Below, in pieces: positions 12,340 to 30,722 of a stretch of DNA of 31,657 nucleotides. Positions within the stretch are counted from its first letter, which is position 1; the number at the start of each line of letters is the position of its first letter. Source of the DNA: Myxococcota bacterium (GTDB lineage Bacteria > Myxococcota > JACRCW01); the NCBI GenBank assembly GCA_040752415.1, contig JBFMGU010000121.1, positions 1-31,657 of the forward strand, in the 5' to 3' direction. Below the pieces are notes generated by a model that did no database searches, was not told the DNA's origin, and saw nothing but the letters and a program-made list of their open reading frames with translations. The translations under genes and the position numbers were made by a program.

Positions 12340-12522
12340 GATGTGACTTGGTGGTCTGTTGGATGGTCAGAAAAATCCAATAAAGTCAACAAAGTGGAAG
12401 AAACGGCATCCTGGTCGTCGAGGTTGTCTCTGTCATGTTGTTGGTGCGGCGGTGAGCGTCCGGCTCGGATGTTGACAACGCGGTATCCCGGGGCTCGGAT
12501 GGCTTCCCCCGGGGAGATCACC

Positions 12523-13464
12523 ATGACCAAGATCCACAAGACCGATTTCGTGGGCCGGATGGATGGCAAGTCCATTGACGTGCGCGAGGCGCAGCGCAAT
12601 CCGCAGCTGGCGGAGGTGAACGTCGGTCGCGCGGACCTCAACCACGACGGAAAGATCAAGGGCACCGACGAGGCAGCGCAGCTCTTCAAGGAAGTGGACC
12701 GCTTTGATTCCGACGGCAGCGCGCACTCCATTGCCGCGCTCACCCCCGCCGGTACTCCCACCAAGGGCGCGCGCCTGTTGGACGTGCTCAGCGGCCACAT
12801 CAAGGCGGATGGCCCCACCAACGTGGGCGGCTCGTCGGGCGCCAACGGTGAGAGCGTGGTGCGCGCCGCCCGGATGCTGGTCACCGAGCGCGGACAGAAC
12901 TACGGCGTGGATGATCCCTGGTTCAACCTGGACCCCAACCACGCGCTCCCCGCCAACGTCTCGCTCGGCGGGCTGAAGGGACGGTGGAAGTGCAACCTGT
13001 TCGCGTGCAACACCGTCTACGCCGCGGGTTTCGAGCCGCCGTATTACAACAACCGTGGTCGCGGCGAGTATCCGAACGCCAACCAGCTCTTCAAGTGGAG
13101 CGACAAGTACGCCGGCCAGTACGGCAACAAGACGCACTTCAAGCTGATGGGTGAGCTGGACCCGCAGTCGCTCGAGGGGGAAGCGCGCGAGAAGGCCATC
13201 CGCGACCTGCTGAGGAGCGCGCAGCCCGGGGACCTCATCATCGTGGACCACATGGGCACCGACGTGGCTGACGGAGGGCACTGTCGCGTGCTGCTGGGGG
13301 GAGACCTGGGCGACGGCAGCGGCACCCTCCAGTGCGCGCAGGCCAGCTTTGACGCCGCCGCCATCAAGGATGAGACCGTGCACAGCTTCACCGGCGAGGA
13401 GCGCATCTGGATCCTGCGTCCCAACCGTCCGCGCGCGGCCAACGGCGGCCAGCCCATTGCCTGA
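12523..13464 (+). CDS. EF-hand-containing protein with C-terminal NlpC/P60/CHAP-like (papain-fold) domain
   Basis: RBS ggggag; DLNHDGKIKGTDE and DRFDSDGS loops; WKCNLFACNTVYAAG (Cys), AQPGDLIIV, GGHCRVL (His); no signal peptide. Confidence 0.75.
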   Translation: MTKIHKTDFVGRMDGKSIDVREAQRNPQLAEVNVGRADLNHDGKIKGTDEAAQLFKEVDRFDSDGSAHSIAALTPAGTPTKGARLLDVLSGHIKADGPTNVGGSSGANGESVVRAARMLVTERGQNYGVDDPWFNLDPNHALPANVSLGGLKGRWKCNLFACNTVYAAGFEPPYYNNRGRGEYPNANQLFKWSDKYAGQYGNKTHFKLMGELDPQSLEGEAREKAIRDLLRSAQPGDLIIVDHMGTDVADGGHCRVLLGGDLGDGSGTLQCAQASFDAAAIKDETVHSFTGEERIWILRPNRPRAANGGQPIA

Positions 13465-22210: not shown

Positions 22211-23599
22211 TCACGCGGCGGAACGGTGGTCCCGCGGCACGATTCCGATGCGATGGAGCCCACGCCCGGGGTGCCACTGGTACCCGCGCACCAGCCAGGC
22301 TTCCGGGTTCACCGGCTCCAGCCGCCCCGTCCGGGGATTGCGGCGGAGGTCCAACGCGCCGGGCTGGTTGATGTGCGCCGCCATGCTGTCCAGGTTGTGG
22401 TTCGCGCCGGTGAGCACGCGGATGTCCTGCACCCCGGCTGCCACCGCGGCGTTGATCTGCTGTTGCCACACCGGGCCGTTTCCGCCCGCGGCGGACAGCG
22501 GCACCGCGTCGTCGTCGATAGAAGTGACCAGGCGGACATGGTCGCTGCGCTGGACGATGTTGCGGAATGCAGCCCGCGTCTGCTCCGGATCACCGGGGAT
22601 GTTGGGATTGATGAGCGTGACATTCCCCAGTCGCGGATTGGTGGGATCCGCGGCGTAGGCGCGCAGTGTGTTGAAGCCGTTGGAGTGCACGGTGACGTCG
22701 AGGGGGAGGCCGATCTCGTGCGCCAGCTCCGCGGTTTCCCGCAGCTTGCGCAGCTGCTCCTGGTTCACGTGGGCGTTGCGTCCCGCGACCACGCCGCCGT
22801 CATTGTCCAGGACCGCGTCCACTTCGCGGCCCGAGGTGGTGCTCATGTTGTGGCGGGTGTCGGCGAGCTCCTCGTCGCTGCGCGGCCCACCGCGCGGCCC
22901 ATGGATTCCTGCCAGGCCCACGTTCAGGCGCCCGTTGCGCAGCGCGCGGTCCAGCGCCGCCATGCCGCGCTGCATGTTGCCGTTGCCCAGCGCCCGGGCC
23001 ATCCGGTCCGCGATCTCCCGCGCACGGTGCGCACGCTGCGGTCCCAGGCGCCGTGCAATCTCCGCCTCGACGCGTCGGCGTACCTCGGGGTCGGGTTGGG
23101 GTTGGGGCCGGGGCTTGGTGACCACGCCGTTCTGCGGTTGTGGCGCGTTGCCAACAATCCCACTGTTCGAGGCCTTGAGCTGGTCCTGGGAGCTGCGGGT
23201 CTCGGCGTCCAGCGCCTTGAGGGCCTTGTACTGCTCATTGCGCGCGCTCGCGGTCTCCAGGGCGGGTGGGATCGACGACGACTGCCGGGCTGCCGACGTG
23301 GAAGCCACGGTGTCCGTGTTGTCGGGGGCGTCGAATCGCCGGTGGAGCTGGTCGCGCAGGCCGCTGTTGGCGTGCACCGCCACTTCGCGCGCGGCGGCGG
23401 AATCGATCTCCCGGCGCGGCGCTGACGACGTCGACGCGTGCTCTGGCGGTTGCGGTTCTCCGGTTGCGTCGCGGGTCTCATCGGTGCCGGCAACGCGCGC
23501 GGCCGGACCGTGGCCGTTGGCAGCCGCGGCTCCATCCACGTCCTGGCGACGAGGGGGCGGTGGCGGCGGGCGGAGCGGGTTGAGGACGGTGTCGCTCAC
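22211..23599 (-). CDS. Alpha/beta-hydrolase (lipase-like) with long disordered N-terminus; candidate effector
   Basis: AAGGAGG RBS before GTG 23599; nucleophile elbow VHSNG, VTLINP, TSIDDDAV (Asp), GANHNL (His); Pro/Ala/Ser-rich N-terminal half. Confidence 0.72.
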   Translation of the reverse strand: MSDTVLNPLRPPPPPPRRQDVDGAAAANGHGPAARVAGTDETRDATGEPQPPEHASTSSAPRREIDSAAAREVAVHANSGLRDQLHRRFDAPDNTDTVASTSAARQSSSIPPALETASARNEQYKALKALDAETRSSQDQLKASNSGIVGNAPQPQNGVVTKPRPQPQPDPEVRRRVEAEIARRLGPQRAHRAREIADRMARALGNGNMQRGMAALDRALRNGRLNVGLAGIHGPRGGPRSDEELADTRHNMSTTSGREVDAVLDNDGGVVAGRNAHVNQEQLRKLRETAELAHEIGLPLDVTVHSNGFNTLRAYAADPTNPRLGNVTLINPNIPGDPEQTRAAFRNIVQRSDHVRLVTSIDDDAVPLSAAGGNGPVWQQQINAAVAAGVQDIRVLTGANHNLDSMAAHINQPGALDLRRNPRTGRLEPVNPEAWLVRGYQWHPGRGLHRIGIVPRDHRSAA

Positions 23600-23884
23600 G
23601 GGAGTTCCTCCTTTGTCAGGGGATTCGGCCGGAGGCGCGGGCCCGGTGCGTCCGGGGTGGACAGCTGACCGACGGTCAACCGTCTCATCGGTGAAGGGGA
23701 GGAGACTCCGCTCAGCGCGGGCGAATCCCACCCGTCGCCCTGGCCACGTCGGAGGACCTCGACCTCGTCGGCGCGCACGCGAAGGGCAGCGCGGGAGCGT
23801 CACCGCCACCACCACGCCCGCTTAGCGCCACTTCGCAGGAGAAGAACGCACCACGAACAGGACCGCCGTCACGACGACGACGGC

Positions 23885-24277
23885 TCAGCGGAACAGGATC
23901 TCCGGGTCCTGCTGCACCTGCGCGCTCACGTTGGCCTGCGCGTCGGCGTCATGGACGAAACACGGGCCGTGGCTCTTCAGGATGAACCGCACCAGCGACG
24001 CCAGGCGCGCGCGGGCCGGCTCGGAGCACTCCTGGTTCACCTCGTAGCTGTTGCCTTCCACCACCACCGAACCCACCGCGGAGGCCACCGTCTCACCGCG
24101 GGCCAGACGCGCGCGCTCGTCGAGGGCGGTGGCGGCGCTGTCGCAGAAGAGGAGCCAGTGCACGCCGTGACCGCGGTCCACGTGGATCACCGCCGGGTCC
24201 CGCGTGGCGTGGGCAATCACGTCCTGCAGCACCGCCGCGGGCTTGCCGGAAGGCGTGAGCGAGAAGTGCGTGATCAT
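23885..24277 (-). CDS. Hypothetical protein; candidate immunity protein
   Basis: 130 aa, soluble, ATGA overlap with the upstream gene's stop; strong GC3 bias. Confidence 0.7.
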   Translation of the reverse strand: MITHFSLTPSGKPAAVLQDVIAHATRDPAVIHVDRGHGVHWLLFCDSAATALDERARLARGETVASAVGSVVVEGNSYEVNQECSEPARARLASLVRFILKSHGPCFVHDADAQANVSAQVQQDPEILFR

Positions 24278-25215
24278 GGCGGAGAGAGGTTGGTGTGCGC
24301 CGCGCCCATGATGACGTCGGCGTAGGCCGCGCTGGAATCCGCCGCGGGTGCCTTGAAGCGCGCCAGCTGGGTGTGCGAGCCCCCGGTACCACGCAGGCCG
24401 AAGTGCGGCTGCGGTGCCTTGGGAACCGGGTGCCCGTCGTTGGTGACCTTGAAGGCCTCGTTGTTCCAGCCGGTGTCCCGCTCGACGTCGAAGCGGCCCG
24501 CCACGCCGCTGCCGCGCAACAGCACCGCCTTGCTGGCGTGGGGTTGCGGACGCATGGGGCTGCTGGGGTCGCCCTGCGGCTTGATGCGCACCATGCCGCC
24601 GTCGGCGGGATGCACGTAGATGTCGTGCGGGACCACGTTGTCGTCGGGACTGGTGGTGCGCGTGCCGTCGGCGCGGACGTAGGTCTGCTCCATGGCAATG
24701 AGCGGGTCCGCGGGGTTGGTGGTGCGCCCTCCGTCGGTACGCGCGTAGACCGGCACGCCGTCCTGCTCACCCACCTGGCGCGGACGCATGGGCCCCTTGA
24801 GCGGCTCCCGACGATGCTGGAACCCCGCCGCCAGCAGCTCCGCGTGCAACGTGGCCGCGTCCTTGCCTTGCAGCTCCAGCGCGCGCACGGAGGCACCGGC
24901 CTTGCCCGCCGCGTACTCATCGAGGCGCGCCGACACGCTCTGGAGGAAAGCGCCCGCCTCCGGGGATGCGTTGGCGGGAGCCAGGTCCCACACGCGCCCG
25001 CTCTGGATGTCCGAGAGCGCCTTGGCCGTCACCGGGTTGGCGCCCGTGGCCGCGGTGGTTGACGACGTGGTGTTGACCGTCTGGTACGCGTCGGTGCGCG
25101 GCGCGCTGGCCTTGTCCCCGACGGACGACGTCACCCCGGGCAACACGTCCCGGGTCACGGGCGGCGTCACACGCGGCGGCTGGACGTGGGCGGGGATACG
25201 CACGAGGGACGTCAT
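24274..25215 (-). CDS. Hypothetical protein; candidate toxin with disordered N-terminus and nuclease-like C-terminal domain
   Basis: Pro/Thr/Ser-rich N-terminus, no signal peptide; C-terminal LQGKDAATLHAELLAAGF...IYVHPADGGMVRIKPQG...RPQPHASK...NEAFKV...AAHTNL. Confidence 0.7.
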   Translation of the reverse strand: MTSLVRIPAHVQPPRVTPPVTRDVLPGVTSSVGDKASAPRTDAYQTVNTTSSTTAATGANPVTAKALSDIQSGRVWDLAPANASPEAGAFLQSVSARLDEYAAGKAGASVRALELQGKDAATLHAELLAAGFQHRREPLKGPMRPRQVGEQDGVPVYARTDGGRTTNPADPLIAMEQTYVRADGTRTTSPDDNVVPHDIYVHPADGGMVRIKPQGDPSSPMRPQPHASKAVLLRGSGVAGRFDVERDTGWNNEAFKVTNDGHPVPKAPQPHFGLRGTGGSHTQLARFKAPAADSSAAYADVIMGAAHTNLSPP

Positions 25216-25301
25216 AACCCGGCGGCGCGGTGCTGCTCAAGCAACAGCGACAACGCCCGTCGTCATCTGGGGCGCGTCCTGGCGTCGCGACGCGACCACG
25301 C

Positions 25302-26576
25302 TCAGAAGTACGCCTTGAACTGCAGGAACGCGCTGGCCGGCGAGGTGCCGAACTCACTGCCGAGCTTCAGCGGCCGGGTCGGGTCGCCGGTGGGGGTGCT
25401 GGCGGGGCGCTCGCCCAGCGTGGCGTAGGCGCCGGCGGCAAGCACCGCGTCGTCGGAGAGGCTCCACGTCAGCGAGGGGCCCAGCAACATGCTCTGGTCC
25501 CCCAGGTTGGCCACCGACGAGCAGCCCACCGTCAGCACCGGCAGCAACTCGAAGCTCGCGCTAAGCGCACCGTAATACCGGCCCAGCGCCCAGATCTCCC
25601 CGCGGGCGAACTCCGGGCGGCGCGCCACGTCGTAGTAGTCGGACGGGCGCTCTCCGCCCAGCGTCTGCACGTAGAGCTCACCCGAGAGCATCAGCCCGTT
25701 CTCGAACCGGCGGTCCACGCCGAGGGCGGCGCGCAGGTAGGGACGGCGGAGATCCGCGGGCAGCGTCACCGTTCCCTCCGCGCGCACGCCAAAGCCCAGC
25801 AGCTCTCCCGCGGTGTCCGCTCCCAGCACGGCCTGGCGGTGGACCTCCGCCGCAAACACGCCCACGTCGACGCCGAACACCGTGCTGCCCACGTGCGCGG
25901 CGAGCACCAGGCCATCCAGGTCCCAGCTCCCCGCGTAGGCGGCCACCAGCGTGAGCTTGTTGGAGGTGCCGGAGTAGACGTCGGCGCGCAGCGCGTCCAC
26001 GCCGGGCTTGTACTCGCGGTCCACCACCAGCGGATGGAACGGTGCCACCACGTCCAGCGGCGTGAAGAAGAACGTGGTGCCAAAGCTCATGGCCTGTCTC
26101 CCGACGGTGAAATCCAGGTTGGGAAACCGCAGCGTCAGCGCCGCGCGGTCCACGCGCACGTTCATCCCCAGGCCCGACGAGCTCACCAGCGTGCGACTCA
26201 GCGTGATGGCCTCCGGCTGCGGCGTCAGCCGCGCGGACGCCCCCGCCCCGACGCCACCCGCGGGCGCGCCGTAGGCGGTCACCAGGTTGGGATGCACCAC
26301 CACCCGCAGCCAGTCGCCCACCGCGGCGTCGAGCTTGAGGCGCACGTCCAGCAGCGCGCGGCCCTGCGGGTCCTGCGGCAGGAGCGCGTGCTCATAGGGA
26401 AACACCGCCACCAGGAAGGTCTTCACGTCGCCACCGGCCTCCAGGCTCACGTGCTCGTTGGCAAGGACCTCCAGCGCCCGCACCGGTGACGACGAGAGAT
26501 CCAGCGCCAGCGCCACCGTGACCGCAAGGGGCGCCACCCGCGTGACGACGGAAAAACGTGGCCGGTCGCAACCCAT
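25302..26576 (-). CDS. Outer-membrane beta-barrel protein
   Basis: N-terminal hydrophobic stretch; VDRA..TVGRQAMSFG..PLD..DREYKPGVDALR; amphipathic strands; terminal FLQFKAYF beta-signal. Confidence 0.8.
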   Translation of the reverse strand: MGCDRPRFSVVTRVAPLAVTVALALDLSSSPVRALEVLANEHVSLEAGGDVKTFLVAVFPYEHALLPQDPQGRALLDVRLKLDAAVGDWLRVVVHPNLVTAYGAPAGGVGAGASARLTPQPEAITLSRTLVSSSGLGMNVRVDRAALTLRFPNLDFTVGRQAMSFGTTFFFTPLDVVAPFHPLVVDREYKPGVDALRADVYSGTSNKLTLVAAYAGSWDLDGLVLAAHVGSTVFGVDVGVFAAEVHRQAVLGADTAGELLGFGVRAEGTVTLPADLRRPYLRAALGVDRRFENGLMLSGELYVQTLGGERPSDYYDVARRPEFARGEIWALGRYYGALSASFELLPVLTVGCSSVANLGDQSMLLGPSLTWSLSDDAVLAAGAYATLGERPASTPTGDPTRPLKLGSEFGTSPASAFLQFKAYF

Positions 26577-26612
26577 CCGCCCTCCGGAGAACCCCAGGAA
26601 ACCGGGGTCGAC

Positions 26613-26647
26613 TTGACGAACTGACCAAATATAGCAAAATGGTCAGT
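26613..26647 (+). promoter_or_regulatory. Promoter with palindromic TetR operator (ACTGACCA-N12-TGGTCAGT)
   Basis: TTGACG (26613-26618), 16 bp, CAAAAT (26635-26640), 7 nt, ATG 26648; IR arms 26620-26627 and 26640-26647, between divergent genes. Confidence 0.72.
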
Positions 26648-27448
26648 ATGACCAAGCGCCAGACCTCCCCGAGCAAGAAGTCCGCGCGTCCCGTCGTGGA
26701 GCCGCGGGAGGCCATGCAGGGCGCGGTCCGCCTGTGGACGGAGCGGATCTCGCGCGGCGGGCACGCGTCCCAGAAGGAGCTGGAGGCCCAGTCGCAACGC
26801 TTGATCGACACGTATCTGCCGGCGCTGGACCCCAACGACCCCAAGACGCGCAAGCGCAACCGCATCCTGCGCGCCGCGGCGGATCACTTCGTGCGCAGCG
26901 GCTACCGCAAGACCAGCATGGATGACGTGGCCCGCGACGCGCACGTGGCCAAGGGCACGCTCTATCTCTACTTCCCCAACAAGGCGGAGCTGCTGATGGC
27001 GGCGCTCTCCGACGAGAAGGCGCGCCAGATCCCCCGTCTCATGGGGATGATGAAGCAGGAGCTCTCCGGGCCGGAGTTCCTCCGCCAGTGGCTCCTCAGC
27101 TCCCTGCTGGCGCTGCAGGAGATGCCGCTCACCCTGCGCATGATGAGCGGGGACCGCGAGATCATGCTCGCCTTCGAGGAGCTGAACCGCGAGATGCGCA
27201 CCGACATCCTGTCCTTGCAGAAGGAAGCGGTGGTGAGCTTCCTGGCCACGGCGGGGAAGGGGCGCTGGAGCGCGCCGGAGCTGGAGGACGCGGCCCAGGT
27301 GGTGATGGCGCTGTTCTACGCGGCCGGCCCGCTCTTTGAACCAAAGTCGCGCGGCGAGGTGCCGGTGGAGCGGTTCGCCGCCGCGCTGGTGAACATGATC
27401 GTCGACGGGATCGTCGGCGGAACGCGGGGGAAGGGAGCAGTGAGATGA
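26648..27448 (+). CDS. TetR/AcrR family transcriptional regulator with N-terminal extension
   Basis: RILRAAADHFVRSGYRKTSMDDVARDAHVAKGTLYLYFPNKAEL. Confidence 0.9.
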   Translation: MTKRQTSPSKKSARPVVEPREAMQGAVRLWTERISRGGHASQKELEAQSQRLIDTYLPALDPNDPKTRKRNRILRAAADHFVRSGYRKTSMDDVARDAHVAKGTLYLYFPNKAELLMAALSDEKARQIPRLMGMMKQELSGPEFLRQWLLSSLLALQEMPLTLRMMSGDREIMLAFEELNREMRTDILSLQKEAVVSFLATAGKGRWSAPELEDAAQVVMALFYAAGPLFEPKSRGEVPVERFAAALVNMIVDGIVGGTRGKGAVR

Positions 27449-28218
27449 AGACGCAGATGGCGGTGAGCCGGTTGCTTGCGGTGGTGACGACGTTGCTGCT
27501 GTCCTGGAGCACCGCGCCCGCGCAGGCCATGGACCCGACCTTGGCGGAGATCCTGCGCATCCAGGACGAGAGCGCGCGGGGCTCCTCCAGCGTGGGCACC
27601 ATGACCATGCGCATCAAGACCGCGCAGTGGGAGCGCACCCTGACCTTGAAGACGTGGAGCCAGGGCACCAACAAGACGCTGGTGCGCATTGAGGCGCCCG
27701 CCAAGGAGAAGGGCACGGCCACGCTGAAGGTGGACGGGGACATCTGGAACTACCTGCCCAAGGTGGACCGCACCATCAAGGTGCCGGGGTCCATGATGTC
27801 GGCGTCGTGGATGGGCAGTCACTTCAGCAATGACGACCTGGTGCGCGAATCCCGCTTCACCGACCACTTCACCTGCCAGTTCCTGCAGAAGGCGGATCCC
27901 GCCGCGGGGCGGCACCACCACGTCGTGGAGTGCACCCCCAGGCCCACCGCGCCGGTGGTGTGGGGCAAGGTGCAGCTGCGCGTCCGCGCCGAGGACAAGC
28001 TGGCCGACCAGGTCACCTACTACGACGAGAAGGGCGCCCTGGTGCGCACCATGACCTTCTCCGGGTTCGACGTGGTGGGTGGGCGCAAGATGGCGCGACG
28101 CATGCAGCTCACCGTGGCCGACCGCCCCAACGAGCTGACCGAGATCCACTACGACGAGATCACCTTTGACGTGAAGCACCCCGAGCAGACCTTCACGTTG
28201 CAGGCGCTCAAACGCTAA
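27445..28218 (+). CDS. LolA-like outer membrane lipoprotein-sorting protein
   Basis: Signal peptide (AQA); PAKEKGTATLK..IWNYLPKVDRTIKVPGSMMSASWMGSHFSNDDL; ATGA coupling to tetR. Confidence 0.88.
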   Translation: MKTQMAVSRLLAVVTTLLLSWSTAPAQAMDPTLAEILRIQDESARGSSSVGTMTMRIKTAQWERTLTLKTWSQGTNKTLVRIEAPAKEKGTATLKVDGDIWNYLPKVDRTIKVPGSMMSASWMGSHFSNDDLVRESRFTDHFTCQFLQKADPAAGRHHHVVECTPRPTAPVVWGKVQLRVRAEDKLADQVTYYDEKGALVRTMTFSGFDVVGGRKMARRMQLTVADRPNELTEIHYDEITFDVKHPEQTFTLQALKR

Positions 28219-28246
28219 CGGGTCCTAAACAGGAGCGGAGACGCAC

Positions 28247-29461
28247 GTGGGTACCTTCCGGTTGGCCTGGCGGAACATCTGGCGTCACAAACGTCGCACC
28301 GGCATCACGCTGGCGGCGCTCAGCCTGGCGCTGGTCTTCACCGTCCTCTACGGCAGCATGATGGAAGGCTACATGGTGAACATGGAGCAGGGCGCGCTGG
28401 ACTTCGACATCGGCGGCGCCCAGGTGTTCGCGCCCGGCTACCAGGACAAGCCTTCCATCCACACCCGCATGGCCGACGCCGCGGACATCGTGCAGCGGCT
28501 GGAGCAGCAGGGCATCCCAGCCGCGGCGCGCCTGCTGGCCTCCGGGCTGGTGGCGTCGGGAGAGGCGTCCGCCGGTGCGCAGCTCCGGGGCATTGACCTG
28601 GCCCGCGACACCCGGGTGCTCTCCATCAACACCCAGCTGAAGGAAGGTCGCTGGCTGGACGGCGCCGACCCGCGTGGCGTGGTGCTGGGCGTCAAGCTGG
28701 CGCGCGTGCTGGGCGTGAAGCTGGGCGACGAGCTGGTGGTGCTCTCCCAGGCCACCGACGGCAGCATTGCCAACGAGCTCTTCACCGTGCGCGGCGTGCT
28801 GCTCAGCGTGGGAGAGGCCACCGACCGCAGCGGCGTGTTCCTGACGGATCAGGCCTTCCGCGAGCTGATGTCCTTTGACGGCGGTGCGCACCAGGTGGTG
28901 GTGAAGCGCCCGGTGGAGATGCCGCTCCCCGTGCTGGCGCAGCGCGTGATGGCCGCCGCGCCCGCGCGGGACGTGCAGACCTGGCGTCAGCTCAATCCCA
29001 TCCTGGCGACGATGATGGACTCCGTGCGCGGCATGATGGCGTTCATCTTCTTCATCGTGAACATTGCCACCGCCATTGTGATCCTCAACGCCATGCTGAT
29101 GGCGGTGTTTGAGCGCATCAAGGAGTTCGGCATCCTGAAGGCGCTGGGGGCGGGCGCCACCGACGTGCTGAAGCTGATCTACGCCGAGAGCCTCCTGCAG
29201 GTGGTGCTGGCGGTGGGCGTGGCGCTCGTGGTGGGAACGCCCGCGCTCTGGTACCTGAGCGTGTACGGCGTGGACATGGGCGCGCTGGCCGGCGTCTCCG
29301 CGATGGGACTGGCCATGGTGAGCAACTGGCACGCCGTGGTCAGCGTTCCCGGCATCCTGACACCGTTCCTCATCATGCTCGTGGTGGTCTCCGTGGCGGT
29401 GCTCTATCCCGCGCTGAAGGCCGCGCTCATCCAACCGGTGAAGGCCATCCACCACACCTGA
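28247..29461 (+). CDS. ABC transporter permease (FtsX/MacB/LolC-E family)
   Basis: LAWRNIWRHKRRT; large periplasmic loop; VFERIKEFGILKALG; LYPALKAA. Confidence 0.92.
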   Translation: MGTFRLAWRNIWRHKRRTGITLAALSLALVFTVLYGSMMEGYMVNMEQGALDFDIGGAQVFAPGYQDKPSIHTRMADAADIVQRLEQQGIPAAARLLASGLVASGEASAGAQLRGIDLARDTRVLSINTQLKEGRWLDGADPRGVVLGVKLARVLGVKLGDELVVLSQATDGSIANELFTVRGVLLSVGEATDRSGVFLTDQAFRELMSFDGGAHQVVVKRPVEMPLPVLAQRVMAAAPARDVQTWRQLNPILATMMDSVRGMMAFIFFIVNIATAIVILNAMLMAVFERIKEFGILKALGAGATDVLKLIYAESLLQVVLAVGVALVVGTPALWYLSVYGVDMGALAGVSAMGLAMVSNWHAVVSVPGILTPFLIMLVVVSVAVLYPALKAALIQPVKAIHHT

Positions 29462-29477
29462 AGACACGGAGGAGCTC

Positions 29478-30722
29478 GTGGGTCCATTCATGTTGGCCTC
29501 CATGGCCTGGCGCAACCTGTGGCGGAACACCCGCCGCACCGTGATCACGTTGTCGTCGATTGTGTTCGCGGTGTTCGTGGCGGTGATGGGCACCGGGGTG
29601 CAGGACTCCAACTGGGAGGAGATCGTCAACACCGCGGCGCGGCTGGGCGGCGGACACGTCACCGTGCAGCACCGCGAATACCAGGATAAACCCACACTAA
29701 GCAGGACCGTGCGCGCCGCGCCCGAGCTGTTGGAGACGCTGGGACGTCAGCCGCACGTGACGCGCGTGGTCCGTCGCGTGGTGGGGCAGGTCATGCTGTC
29801 CACCACCTCCGACAGCGCCGGCGCGGGATTCGTGGCCTATGACCCCGCGCGGGAAGACGAAACCACATTGTCGGTGCTGAAGACCCTGCACCAGGGCCAG
29901 GCGTTCACCTCCCCCGACGACAAAGGCATGGTGCTGGGCGTCCGCCTGGCGCAGAACCTGGGCGCGGAGGTGGGCACCAAGGTGGTCTACACGCTCACCG
30001 ACAAGCAGGGCGAGATCGTCAACGGCATGGCGCGGGTGACCGGGATTGTGAAGACCGGCTCACCCGGCGCGGACCTGGGGCTGTGCTTCCTCCCGCTGCG
30101 CGCGGTGCAGGAGGTGCTGGGCTACGCCCCCGACGAGAGCACCCAGGTGGCCGTGTTCCTCCATGACCAGCGCGCTTCTCCCGCGGTGGCCGAGCGCGTG
30201 GGGGCGCTGGTACCCGGCGTCGCTTCTTTGACCTGGAAGGAGACCCAGCCGGACCTGGACAACCTCATTGCCGTCAAGAAGGGCGGCATGGTGTTCCTGG
30301 AGGTGCTCTTCATGCTGCTGTGCGCCGCAGGCATCTTCAACACGCTCTTCGTCAGCGTCATGGAGCGGCTCCGGGAGTTCGGGATCCTCGTCGCCATTGG
30401 CATGAGCTCCGCGCGACTCTTCCTCATGATCATGCTGGAGAGCCTCTGGCTGGCGCTGGTGGGGCTGGTGGTCTCGGTGCTGGCGCTGGCGTACCCGTAC
30501 CACTTCATGAACACCGTGGGCGTGGACATCTCCCAGCGCGTTGGCGCGCAGCAGGCCGACGTGGCCGGCGTGGGAATGCCCATGGTGCTGAAAGCCGCCA
30601 TCTACCCCGAGAACGCCGCGGCCATTGCGGTAGCGGCCATCCTCGCCACGCTGACGGCCGGTCTGTACCCGGCGTGGCGCGCGGGACGCGTGGAACCCGT
30701 GGAATCCATCAAGCTGGTGTGA
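29478..30722 (+). CDS. ABC transporter permease (FtsX/MacB/LolC-E family)
   Basis: MAWRNLWRNTRRT; VMERLREFGILVAIG; LYPAWRAGRVEPVE. Confidence 0.92.
   Translation: MGPFMLASMAWRNLWRNTRRTVITLSSIVFAVFVAVMGTGVQDSNWEEIVNTAARLGGGHVTVQHREYQDKPTLSRTVRAAPELLETLGRQPHVTRVVRRVVGQVMLSTTSDSAGAGFVAYDPAREDETTLSVLKTLHQGQAFTSPDDKGMVLGVRLAQNLGAEVGTKVVYTLTDKQGEIVNGMARVTGIVKTGSPGADLGLCFLPLRAVQEVLGYAPDESTQVAVFLHDQRASPAVAERVGALVPGVASLTWKETQPDLDNLIAVKKGGMVFLEVLFMLLCAAGIFNTLFVSVMERLREFGILVAIGMSSARLFLMIMLESLWLALVGLVVSVLALAYPYHFMNTVGVDISQRVGAQQADVAGVGMPMVLKAAIYPENAAAIAVAAILATLTAGLYPAWRAGRVEPVESIKLV

Follow-up and report, generated by a model that had tools for sequence, protein, structure and literature searches.

A Myxococcota gene pair probably encoding a toxin and its cognate immunity protein, from two apparently undescribed families

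In polymorphic toxin systems, C-terminal toxin domains are borne on RHS/YD, extracellular contractile injection system (eCIS)-DUF4157, LXG, CdiA or PAAR carriers and the immunity gene lies downstream (Zhang/Aravind-type classification); such toxins are a main source of new enzymatic activities, of antibacterial mechanisms and of pairs of proteins with their inhibitors. Among the myxobacteria, the SitA toxins of Myxococcus, which pass between cells by outer-membrane exchange, are lipoproteins with an N-terminal lipobox, and the SitI immunity gene is found directly downstream. A further arrangement is that of CapRel, a fused toxin–antitoxin defence protein. Here we describe two genes, A and B, from a Myxococcota bacterium (assembly GCA_040752415.1), located in a stretch of 31,657 bp (the window) that makes up the whole of one contig (JBFMGU010000121.1, C26 in our numbering) of an 11.0-Mb, 96.8%-complete genome with DNA of 68–72% GC. 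We consider it likely that A encodes a toxin and B its cognate immunity protein, and that they represent new families within the known polymorphic-toxin paradigm. This reading is supported by the carriage of A-family domains on RHS and eCIS proteins, by a conserved downstream gene, by single-chain fusions of the two domains and by a confident predicted complex.

The only structurally characterized protein to which the A domain may have a distant link is the toxin PT7 of Bacillus cereus, which has the immunity protein PIM7 (PDB 8owu; Nachmias et al.). According to the original report, PT7 is an LXG-linked, Mg-dependent, non-specific DNase with a topology that its authors call unlike that of any known protein, it is reported from Firmicutes and Proteobacteria, and its immunity protein holds a negatively charged face over the catalytic pocket (bioRxiv 10.1101/2021.10.19.465003). 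A second source states that the wild-type enzyme also degrades total RNA (PMC13675652).

As in other polymorphic toxin systems, the A-family domain lies at the extreme C-terminus of different carriers (RHS, eCIS_core, PKD and short forms with a Sec signal or lipobox) and is followed by a conserved gene for a small, acidic, cytoplasmic partner with which it is confidently predicted to interact. Unlike them, A itself is a stand-alone protein of 313 aa with a disordered leader of 65 residues and no recognised carrier domain or signal, and some relatives of A instead fuse the putative toxin and immunity domains in one chain. Systems in which a polymorphic toxin is paired with an immunity protein are well known; unusual as variants are the leaderless form that stands alone and the fusions of both domains in a single chain. 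The pair recalls SitA/SitI in that a candidate myxobacterial toxin gene is directly followed by a candidate immunity gene, but where SitA has a lipobox, the first 65 residues of A contain no Cys, signal peptide, lipobox or hydrophobic segment. Seven relatives of A resemble CapRel in that a single chain starts with the toxin domain and ends with a B-like one; in the window, however, A and B are separate genes, unrelated in sequence or fold to toxins of the RelA/SpoT type and without a PADLOC match.

Gene A (24274–25215, minus strand, stop codon included) encodes 313 aa and was recognized as a stand-alone member of the toxin-domain family from the listing of open reading frames (ORFs), from the GC content at third codon positions (GC3) and from 175 family representatives. 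Gene B (23885–24277, minus strand, stop codon included) encodes a 130-aa protein that is acidic, predicted to be cytoplasmic and of a putative immunity type, in what appears to be a new family. The two were found as initially annotated, coupled by an ATGA overlap (24274–24277, minus strand) that can be read directly from the sequence (...CCGCCATGATCACG...) and in which the TGA stop of A and the ATG start of B share the four letters ATGA. GC3 is 0.91 in A and 0.93 in B, and because this third-position bias is that of real genes in this DNA, both look coding. The leader of A, codons 1–65 (25021–25215, minus strand), encodes a Pro/Thr/Val/Ala-rich, basic (pI 10.3) segment; its GC3 of 0.95 in frame drops to 0.62 and 0.65 in the two alternative frames, and we therefore take it to be translated. 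A gene caller placed the start of A four codons later, at GTG 25203, giving 309 aa rather than the 313 aa of the ORF. The remainder, residues 66–313 (24277–25020, minus strand), is the putative toxin domain, modelled as a helical N-subdomain and a beta-rich core with H202, D205, R210, K229, E253 and K266.

An exhaustive phmmer search of 1.84 billion representatives with A gave 175 cluster representatives at E<=1e-3, of which 86 reached E<=1e-10 and 5 reached E<=1e-30; a word-indexed search had given two relatives only. The conserved unit of the family corresponds to approximately residues 66–313 of A, and the subfamily closest to A (P0005/P0153, P0006 and P0007; 44–46% identity) has an extra duplicated hairpin in common with it. 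None of 118 aligned family members had a Pfam match to the toxin domain, and a profile of these 118 sequences, set against the sequences of all PDB chains (E<=10), brought up only two matches, both unrelated (E 0.31 and 1.4). No family was assigned to A by Pfam or NCBIfam (both at E<=0.1) or by PADLOC, and no NCBIfam or PADLOC model matched B. The source names of family proteins, where seen, were all 'hypothetical protein', and text searches of the literature turned up no description of the family, a weak negative, since a family defined by its sequence cannot be retrieved through words. Because there is no library model match, no sequence relative in PDB, no source name and nothing in text searches, both the toxin-domain and the immunity-domain families appear undescribed.

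A Pfam scan for carriers covered 30 long relatives, of which 4 had any Pfam domain and 26 had none. The toxin domain forms the extreme C-terminus of P0031, which has RHS repeats, and of P0093, which has RHS repeats together with DUF6531 and an RHS core; it is likewise C-terminal in P0023, with an eCIS_core (DUF4157) domain, and in P0076, with a PKD domain. The same was seen in fetched DNA, where loci L021 and L028 encode RHS proteins (RHS_repeat E 3.5e-46 and 3.5e-44; DUF6531) with the toxin domain after the RHS core and L014 encodes an eCIS_core protein with the toxin domain at its C-terminus. The check proposed in the initial annotation, for homologous domains at RHS tips with the same gene downstream, was positive (P0031, P0093, L021, L028; eCIS forms P0023 and L014). 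Many short family members have Sec signals or lipoboxes instead of carrier modules, and there are also stand-alone members of approximately 200 aa without any N-terminal extension. Named genomes with the family belong to Alphaproteobacteria (including Paracaedibacteraceae), Sericytochromatia/Cyanobacteria, Oligoflexia, Bdellovibrio and Myxococcota/Kofleriaceae, and one partner protein is labelled Eisenbacteria; the family spans at least five phyla. It is rare in Myxococcota (7 of 401 genomes, that of the window included), and A is a single-copy gene in the 11-Mb genome, where the family hidden Markov model (HMM) matches only A among 98,897 stop-to-stop frames. RHS repeats occur in five giant ORFs of this genome, none of which carries the toxin domain.

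Two side observations concern the wider family. A recurring 'YPG(R/H)' motif, absent from A, precedes the toxin domain by 30–60 residues in forms with RHS, eCIS or a Sec signal (seen in loci L021, L014 and L002 and in proteins P0008, P0012, P0015, P0018, P0020 and P0021), where it may be a boundary or a site of processing. More distant forms of the domain, found in loci L038–L041 (genomes G123, G264, G344 and G160; phylum family f11), make up the C-terminus of open frames of 796–1298 aa; in two of these four loci the 270-aa ORF downstream has a weak B-like domain at its start.

B had been annotated as an orphan, and a word-indexed search retrieved B alone among 123 candidates; that description is true only for the word-indexed search, and profile methods place B in a family. 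In Sericytochromatia and Kofleriaceae loci, the toxin gene is directly followed by ORFs of 127–135 aa that are colinear with B, and hhalign of B against six such ORFs gave a probability of 88.7% (E 2.6e-6 over 126 columns). An HMM built from the downstream-ORF sequences was run over all ORFs of 33 fetched loci and the window (28 distinct loci). In 15 of the 28 distinct loci (15 of the 24 that are informative), RHS and eCIS forms included, the toxin gene is closely followed by a B-like ORF of the same orientation; the two are separated by −58 to +22 bp in 11 loci and by 150–806 bp in 4. Loci outside the building of the HMM also match (L026, 4e-26; L028, 1e-21; L020/21, 1.9e-11; L014/15, 1e-9; L016, 6e-8; L018, 1e-6; L019, 7e-6), and the HMM is specific, with only B matched among the 98,897 genome frames and the next match at E 0.46. 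Identity between B and the partners of eCIS- or RHS-type relatives is 27–35%. None of 15 B-family sequences has a hydrophobic N-terminal signal, and all have a pI of 4.5–5.9 (5.9 for B). No B-like gene was found in the other 13 distinct loci, 4 of which end within 200 bp of the toxin gene (<=200 bp). In two distant Myxococcaceae-type loci, a downstream ORF of 270 aa begins with a weak B-like domain (E ~3e-5 to 6e-5), and in three other distant loci of this type no B-like domain was found downstream. The only Pfam match of B, to DUF7466, was judged to be due to chance, with E 0.0044, a score of 17.4 bits where the cut-off is 27, and a match in just 1 of the 15 family members.

Of particular interest are proteins in which the two domains are joined. 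In 7 of 160 family proteins, all metagenomic (P0133, P0075, P0143, P0087, P0152, P0111 and P0109; 324–340 aa), the toxin domain is followed in the same chain by a B-like domain (E 8.9e-10 to 7.1e-4). These proteins are without an N-terminal extension, keep H202, D205 and K229 and mostly also R210 and E253, and may be self-inhibited toxins or defence-type sensors. Their resemblance to fused toxin–antitoxin proteins such as CapRel raises the alternative that A and B form an intracellular two-part module, either a toxin–antitoxin or phage-defence pair or an enzyme with an inhibitory or regulatory subunit, in which B would restrain A until a trigger is received. Such a module would also be in keeping with the lack of a signal peptide or trafficking domain in A, with the stand-alone forms of approximately 200 aa and with the accessory nature of the gene set within the phylum (7 of 401 genomes). 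We nevertheless regard it as unlikely. Both families are found in export contexts, as an RHS tip or eCIS-marker protein with its downstream gene, many members have Sec signals or lipoboxes, and no PADLOC model matched; moreover, toxin first and protector second, with no DNA-binding domain in B, is the order of polymorphic toxins and not the usual order of type II toxin–antitoxin pairs.

The AlphaFold2 (AF2) model of residues 60–313 of A, with the leader outside the model, has a predicted local distance difference test score (pLDDT) of 93.8 and a predicted template modelling score (pTM) of 0.88, and that of B has a pLDDT of 95.0 and a pTM of 0.87. B is a generic alpha/beta sandwich with no outlying fold match. 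The modelled fold of the toxin domain has almost no structural neighbours: Foldseek against BFVD gave a best E of 0.2, the best score in the ESM Atlas was 0.84, below the 0.9 needed for more than a lead, and the sole outlying fold match is PT7. When residues 60–313 of A were folded together with B, the interface score (ipSAE) was 0.86 in three of three runs, and the best of three controls scored 0.00. Of 157 solved complexes 116 attain this mark, as do 2 of 215 mismatched pairs, counts that hold only roughly here, as custom alignments were used. At least 92% of contacts (>=92%) agree between runs, and the pLDDT of the partner is 93. The predicted interface has approximately 150 contacts and includes the conserved R222 and H307, residues adjoining N252/E253 and K266, and the duplicated hairpins. 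These models support direct binding between the A domain and B, and with the RHS and eCIS tips and the B-like downstream genes they support the proposal of the initial annotation that a new toxin domain is followed directly by its immunity protein.

The position of B on the folded domain also bears on another view of the pair, in which A would be secreted by a type III system with B as its class I chaperone. Class I chaperones attach to the N-terminal 50–100 residues of their effectors, and their partners are confined to type III loci. The disordered, signal-free N-terminus of A would suit a type III substrate, B has the size (approximately 130 aa), acidity and alpha/beta composition of such a chaperone, and the genome has two FHIPEP (FlhA/SctV-type) genes, on contigs C24 and C138. 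However, B is predicted to sit on the C-terminal domain with its approximately 150 contacts, in a model that excludes the leader, and B-like genes follow RHS and eCIS-marker proteins, which use no type III chaperones. Contig C24 also carries both flagellin genes; the FHIPEP gene there is by this linkage flagellar, which suggests a flagellated lineage. Since, in addition, the leader motif of A is on no other ORF of the genome, we think a substrate–chaperone pair extremely improbable.

Our working hypothesis is that A and B are toxin and immunity protein, and that the toxic module is the folded C-terminal domain of A, approximately residues 66–313. B would be made in the same cytoplasm through translational coupling at the ATGA overlap and would bind a large face of the toxin domain beside its conserved polar cluster, keeping the producer safe, possibly by occlusion of the active site. 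A would then be exported. Since the members of the B family are acidic and have no signal peptide, the target of A is most likely cytoplasmic and anionic.

The catalytic-type motifs quoted for A in the initial annotation are all present (LAAGFQH, YVHPADGGMVRIKPQG, RPQPHASK, NEAFK and GAAH) and fall on conserved columns of the 118-sequence family alignment. Conserved polar positions in this alignment are H202 (101/118), D205 (112/118), R210 (112/118), K212 (96), K229 (100/118), N252 (83), E253 (110/117), K256 (95), K266 (99) and H307 (96). Based on the cluster of His, Asp and Glu with Lys and Arg and on the fold resemblance to PT7, the best candidate activity would be that of a metal-dependent, nuclease-type phosphodiesterase acting through H202, D205, R210, K229, E253 and K266, an assignment that we make tentatively. 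Like A/B, PT7/PIM7 combines a polymorphic-toxin tip with a downstream immunity gene, and B is acidic as is the face of PIM7 over the pocket. The catalytic residues of PT7 are D37 and H47, with a Mg site; candidates for equivalent residues in A are H202, D205 and E253. The two toxins differ in several respects. PT7 has 76 aa, compared with approximately 250 aa for the A domain with its helical N-subdomain and long hairpin insertions, and PT7 is linked to LXG, which was absent from the 30 long relatives of A scanned.

A more specific proposal, made in the initial annotation, was that A is an RNase toxin of the BECR fold (barnase/EndoU/colicin E5-D/RelE). It is consistent with the toxin–immunity context, with the conserved His, Arg and Lys residues and with the degradation of total RNA, besides DNA, that is reported for PT7, the sole structural neighbour (PMC13675652). 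The fold searches did not bear it out: no barnase, EndoU, colicin E5/D or RelE structure appeared in any fold-search list, although absence from a list does not by itself exclude a fold, and with a model of pLDDT 93.8 Foldseek found no BECR-fold structure in PDB (best E 0.51). The near-invariant D205 and E253 moreover suggest metal-dependent chemistry rather than the metal-independent chemistry of the BECR type, and we hold a BECR RNase to be very unlikely.

It is also conceivable that A is a secreted effector or enzyme directed at prey or eukaryotic hosts, with a target other than nucleic acid (a nucleotide, a lipid head group or a protein) and with B as its inhibitor. The named genomes are those of predatory or host-associated bacteria (Bdellovibrio, Oligoflexia, Paracaedibacteraceae, Myxococcota and Sericytochromatia), the Sec-signal forms are often without a B-like gene, and the fold searches gave no functional neighbour that could be trusted. 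However, a conserved cluster rich in Lys and Arg, with a B protein that is acidic and cytoplasmic, fits an anionic polymer as substrate, the sole outlying fold match is a nuclease, and RHS and eCIS cargo are most often toxins that act in the cytoplasm. On balance, this too seems distinctly unlikely.

A number of observations weigh against the toxin–immunity reading or against parts of it. A has no recognisable trafficking domain or signal peptide, and no TssC gene (type VI secretion system sheath) was found in the 96.8%-complete genome, so that A would be a weapon without a visible delivery route. An eCIS_core search of the genome was negative as well, but says nothing, as its control gave no match either. 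A downstream B-like gene is lacking from 9 of the 24 informative distinct loci; these are mostly Sec-signal forms (L002, L003, L022/23, L005 and L008), together with L009, L027, L031 and L033, and L009 and L027 have neither a B-like gene nor an obvious signal. Single-chain fusions are unusual for exported weapons and fit an intracellular regulated enzyme equally well. With regard to chemistry, H226 is variable in the family alignment (72/118), and in distant Myxococcaceae-type members E253 is replaced; in loci L038–L041 its place is taken in SVAFK and IACK, and DGG becomes DGT or DGS. The link with PT7 is marked by an identity of 13% without a match at the sequence level (profile against PDB sequences, E<=10), PIM7 was not retrieved by the model of B, and the Foldseek search of PDB with the toxin-domain model found nothing. 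Finally, the calibration of the complex predictor rests on a type of alignment other than that used here.

If the pair is what we take it to be, it would bring in one toxin and one immunity domain, each modelled with very high confidence and found in neither Pfam, NCBIfam, PADLOC nor the PDB sequences, and a true link to PT7 would make that isolated fold part of a superfamily. That the same putative toxin occurs as RHS and eCIS cargo and in forms that are Sec-secreted, leaderless or fused to their own partner should be useful for understanding how toxic modules move between delivery systems and when immunity can be dispensed with, and its enrichment among predators and host-associated bacteria may point to a part in predation. 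It is tempting to go further and to speculate that A represents a large, elaborated founder of a cross-phylum superfamily with PT7 topology, deployed as RHS cargo, as eCIS cargo, as an immunity-free Sec effector in predatory or intracellular bacteria and as a toxin–immunity fusion that possibly senses or defends inside the cell, and that a myxobacterial N-terminal motif of approximately 22 residues directs export by a route without any known trafficking domain. As a whole, this wider scheme is rather unlikely to hold.

The motif in question was seen in the leader of A, whose first ~22 residues resemble the N-termini of P0153, P0006 and P0007 in an R-x-P...Q-x-P...P-x-x-T/V-R/Q pattern. The absence of an RHS, PAAR, VgrG or lipoprotein signal noted at the outset holds for this copy, which falls into no Pfam, NCBIfam or PADLOC family and whose leader is free of Cys and of any hydrophobic signal. 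It had further been proposed that A shares an N-terminal leader with two neighbouring orphans (22211–23599 and 12523–13464); in a search of 11,141 high-GC3 frames of the genome the pattern turned up in A alone, and it is therefore not common to these orphans.

The pair is flanked by two hairpins, and A and B for this reason probably form a two-gene transcription unit of their own. The first, terminator-like (25248–25267, minus strand), lies in the 86 bp that separate A from the upstream outer-membrane gene, where a consensus scan gave two overlapping sites compared with 0.4 expected from shuffles, a weak signal that is a consensus match only. The second (23862–23884, minus strand), seen in an RNA fold of 23800–23900 directly 3' of the stop codon of B, has 9 bp, is GC-rich, is followed by a U-containing tract and is a possible end of the A–B transcript; the whole 101-nt fold is unexceptional (z = -1.46), and the hairpin is not among the terminators listed by the consensus scan.

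The gene upstream of A (25302–26576, minus strand) encodes a 424-aa outer-membrane-type protein that ends in ...FKAYF and has no Pfam family. It was considered as a dedicated export pore for A and rejected, since it is present in 13 of 31 relatives and occurs in G011 and G029 without A or B. In these two genomes it is part of one cluster with a LolA-like gene and two MacB genes; here it is inverted, with a TetR gene between it and the LolA-like and MacB genes (26558–30722, plus strand), and A–B adjoins it.

Directly downstream of B is an orphan (22211–23815, minus strand) with a likely start at GTG 23599, giving 462 aa. It has a long, Pro-rich, disordered N-terminus and, in its C-terminal part, an 'HSNG' motif like a nucleophile elbow with later Asp and His residues, and may be an effector of the alpha/beta-hydrolase type; no Pfam, NCBIfam, PADLOC or PDB sequence match was found, and in a search of 31 relatives it was seen only in this genome. 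The second orphan (12343–13464, plus strand; possible start ATG 12523) has a leader unlike that of A and no Pfam or PADLOC match, and its C-terminal part shows a Cys and a His in an arrangement like that of NlpC/P60 or CHAP proteins (...NLFACNTVYAAG...GGHCRV...).

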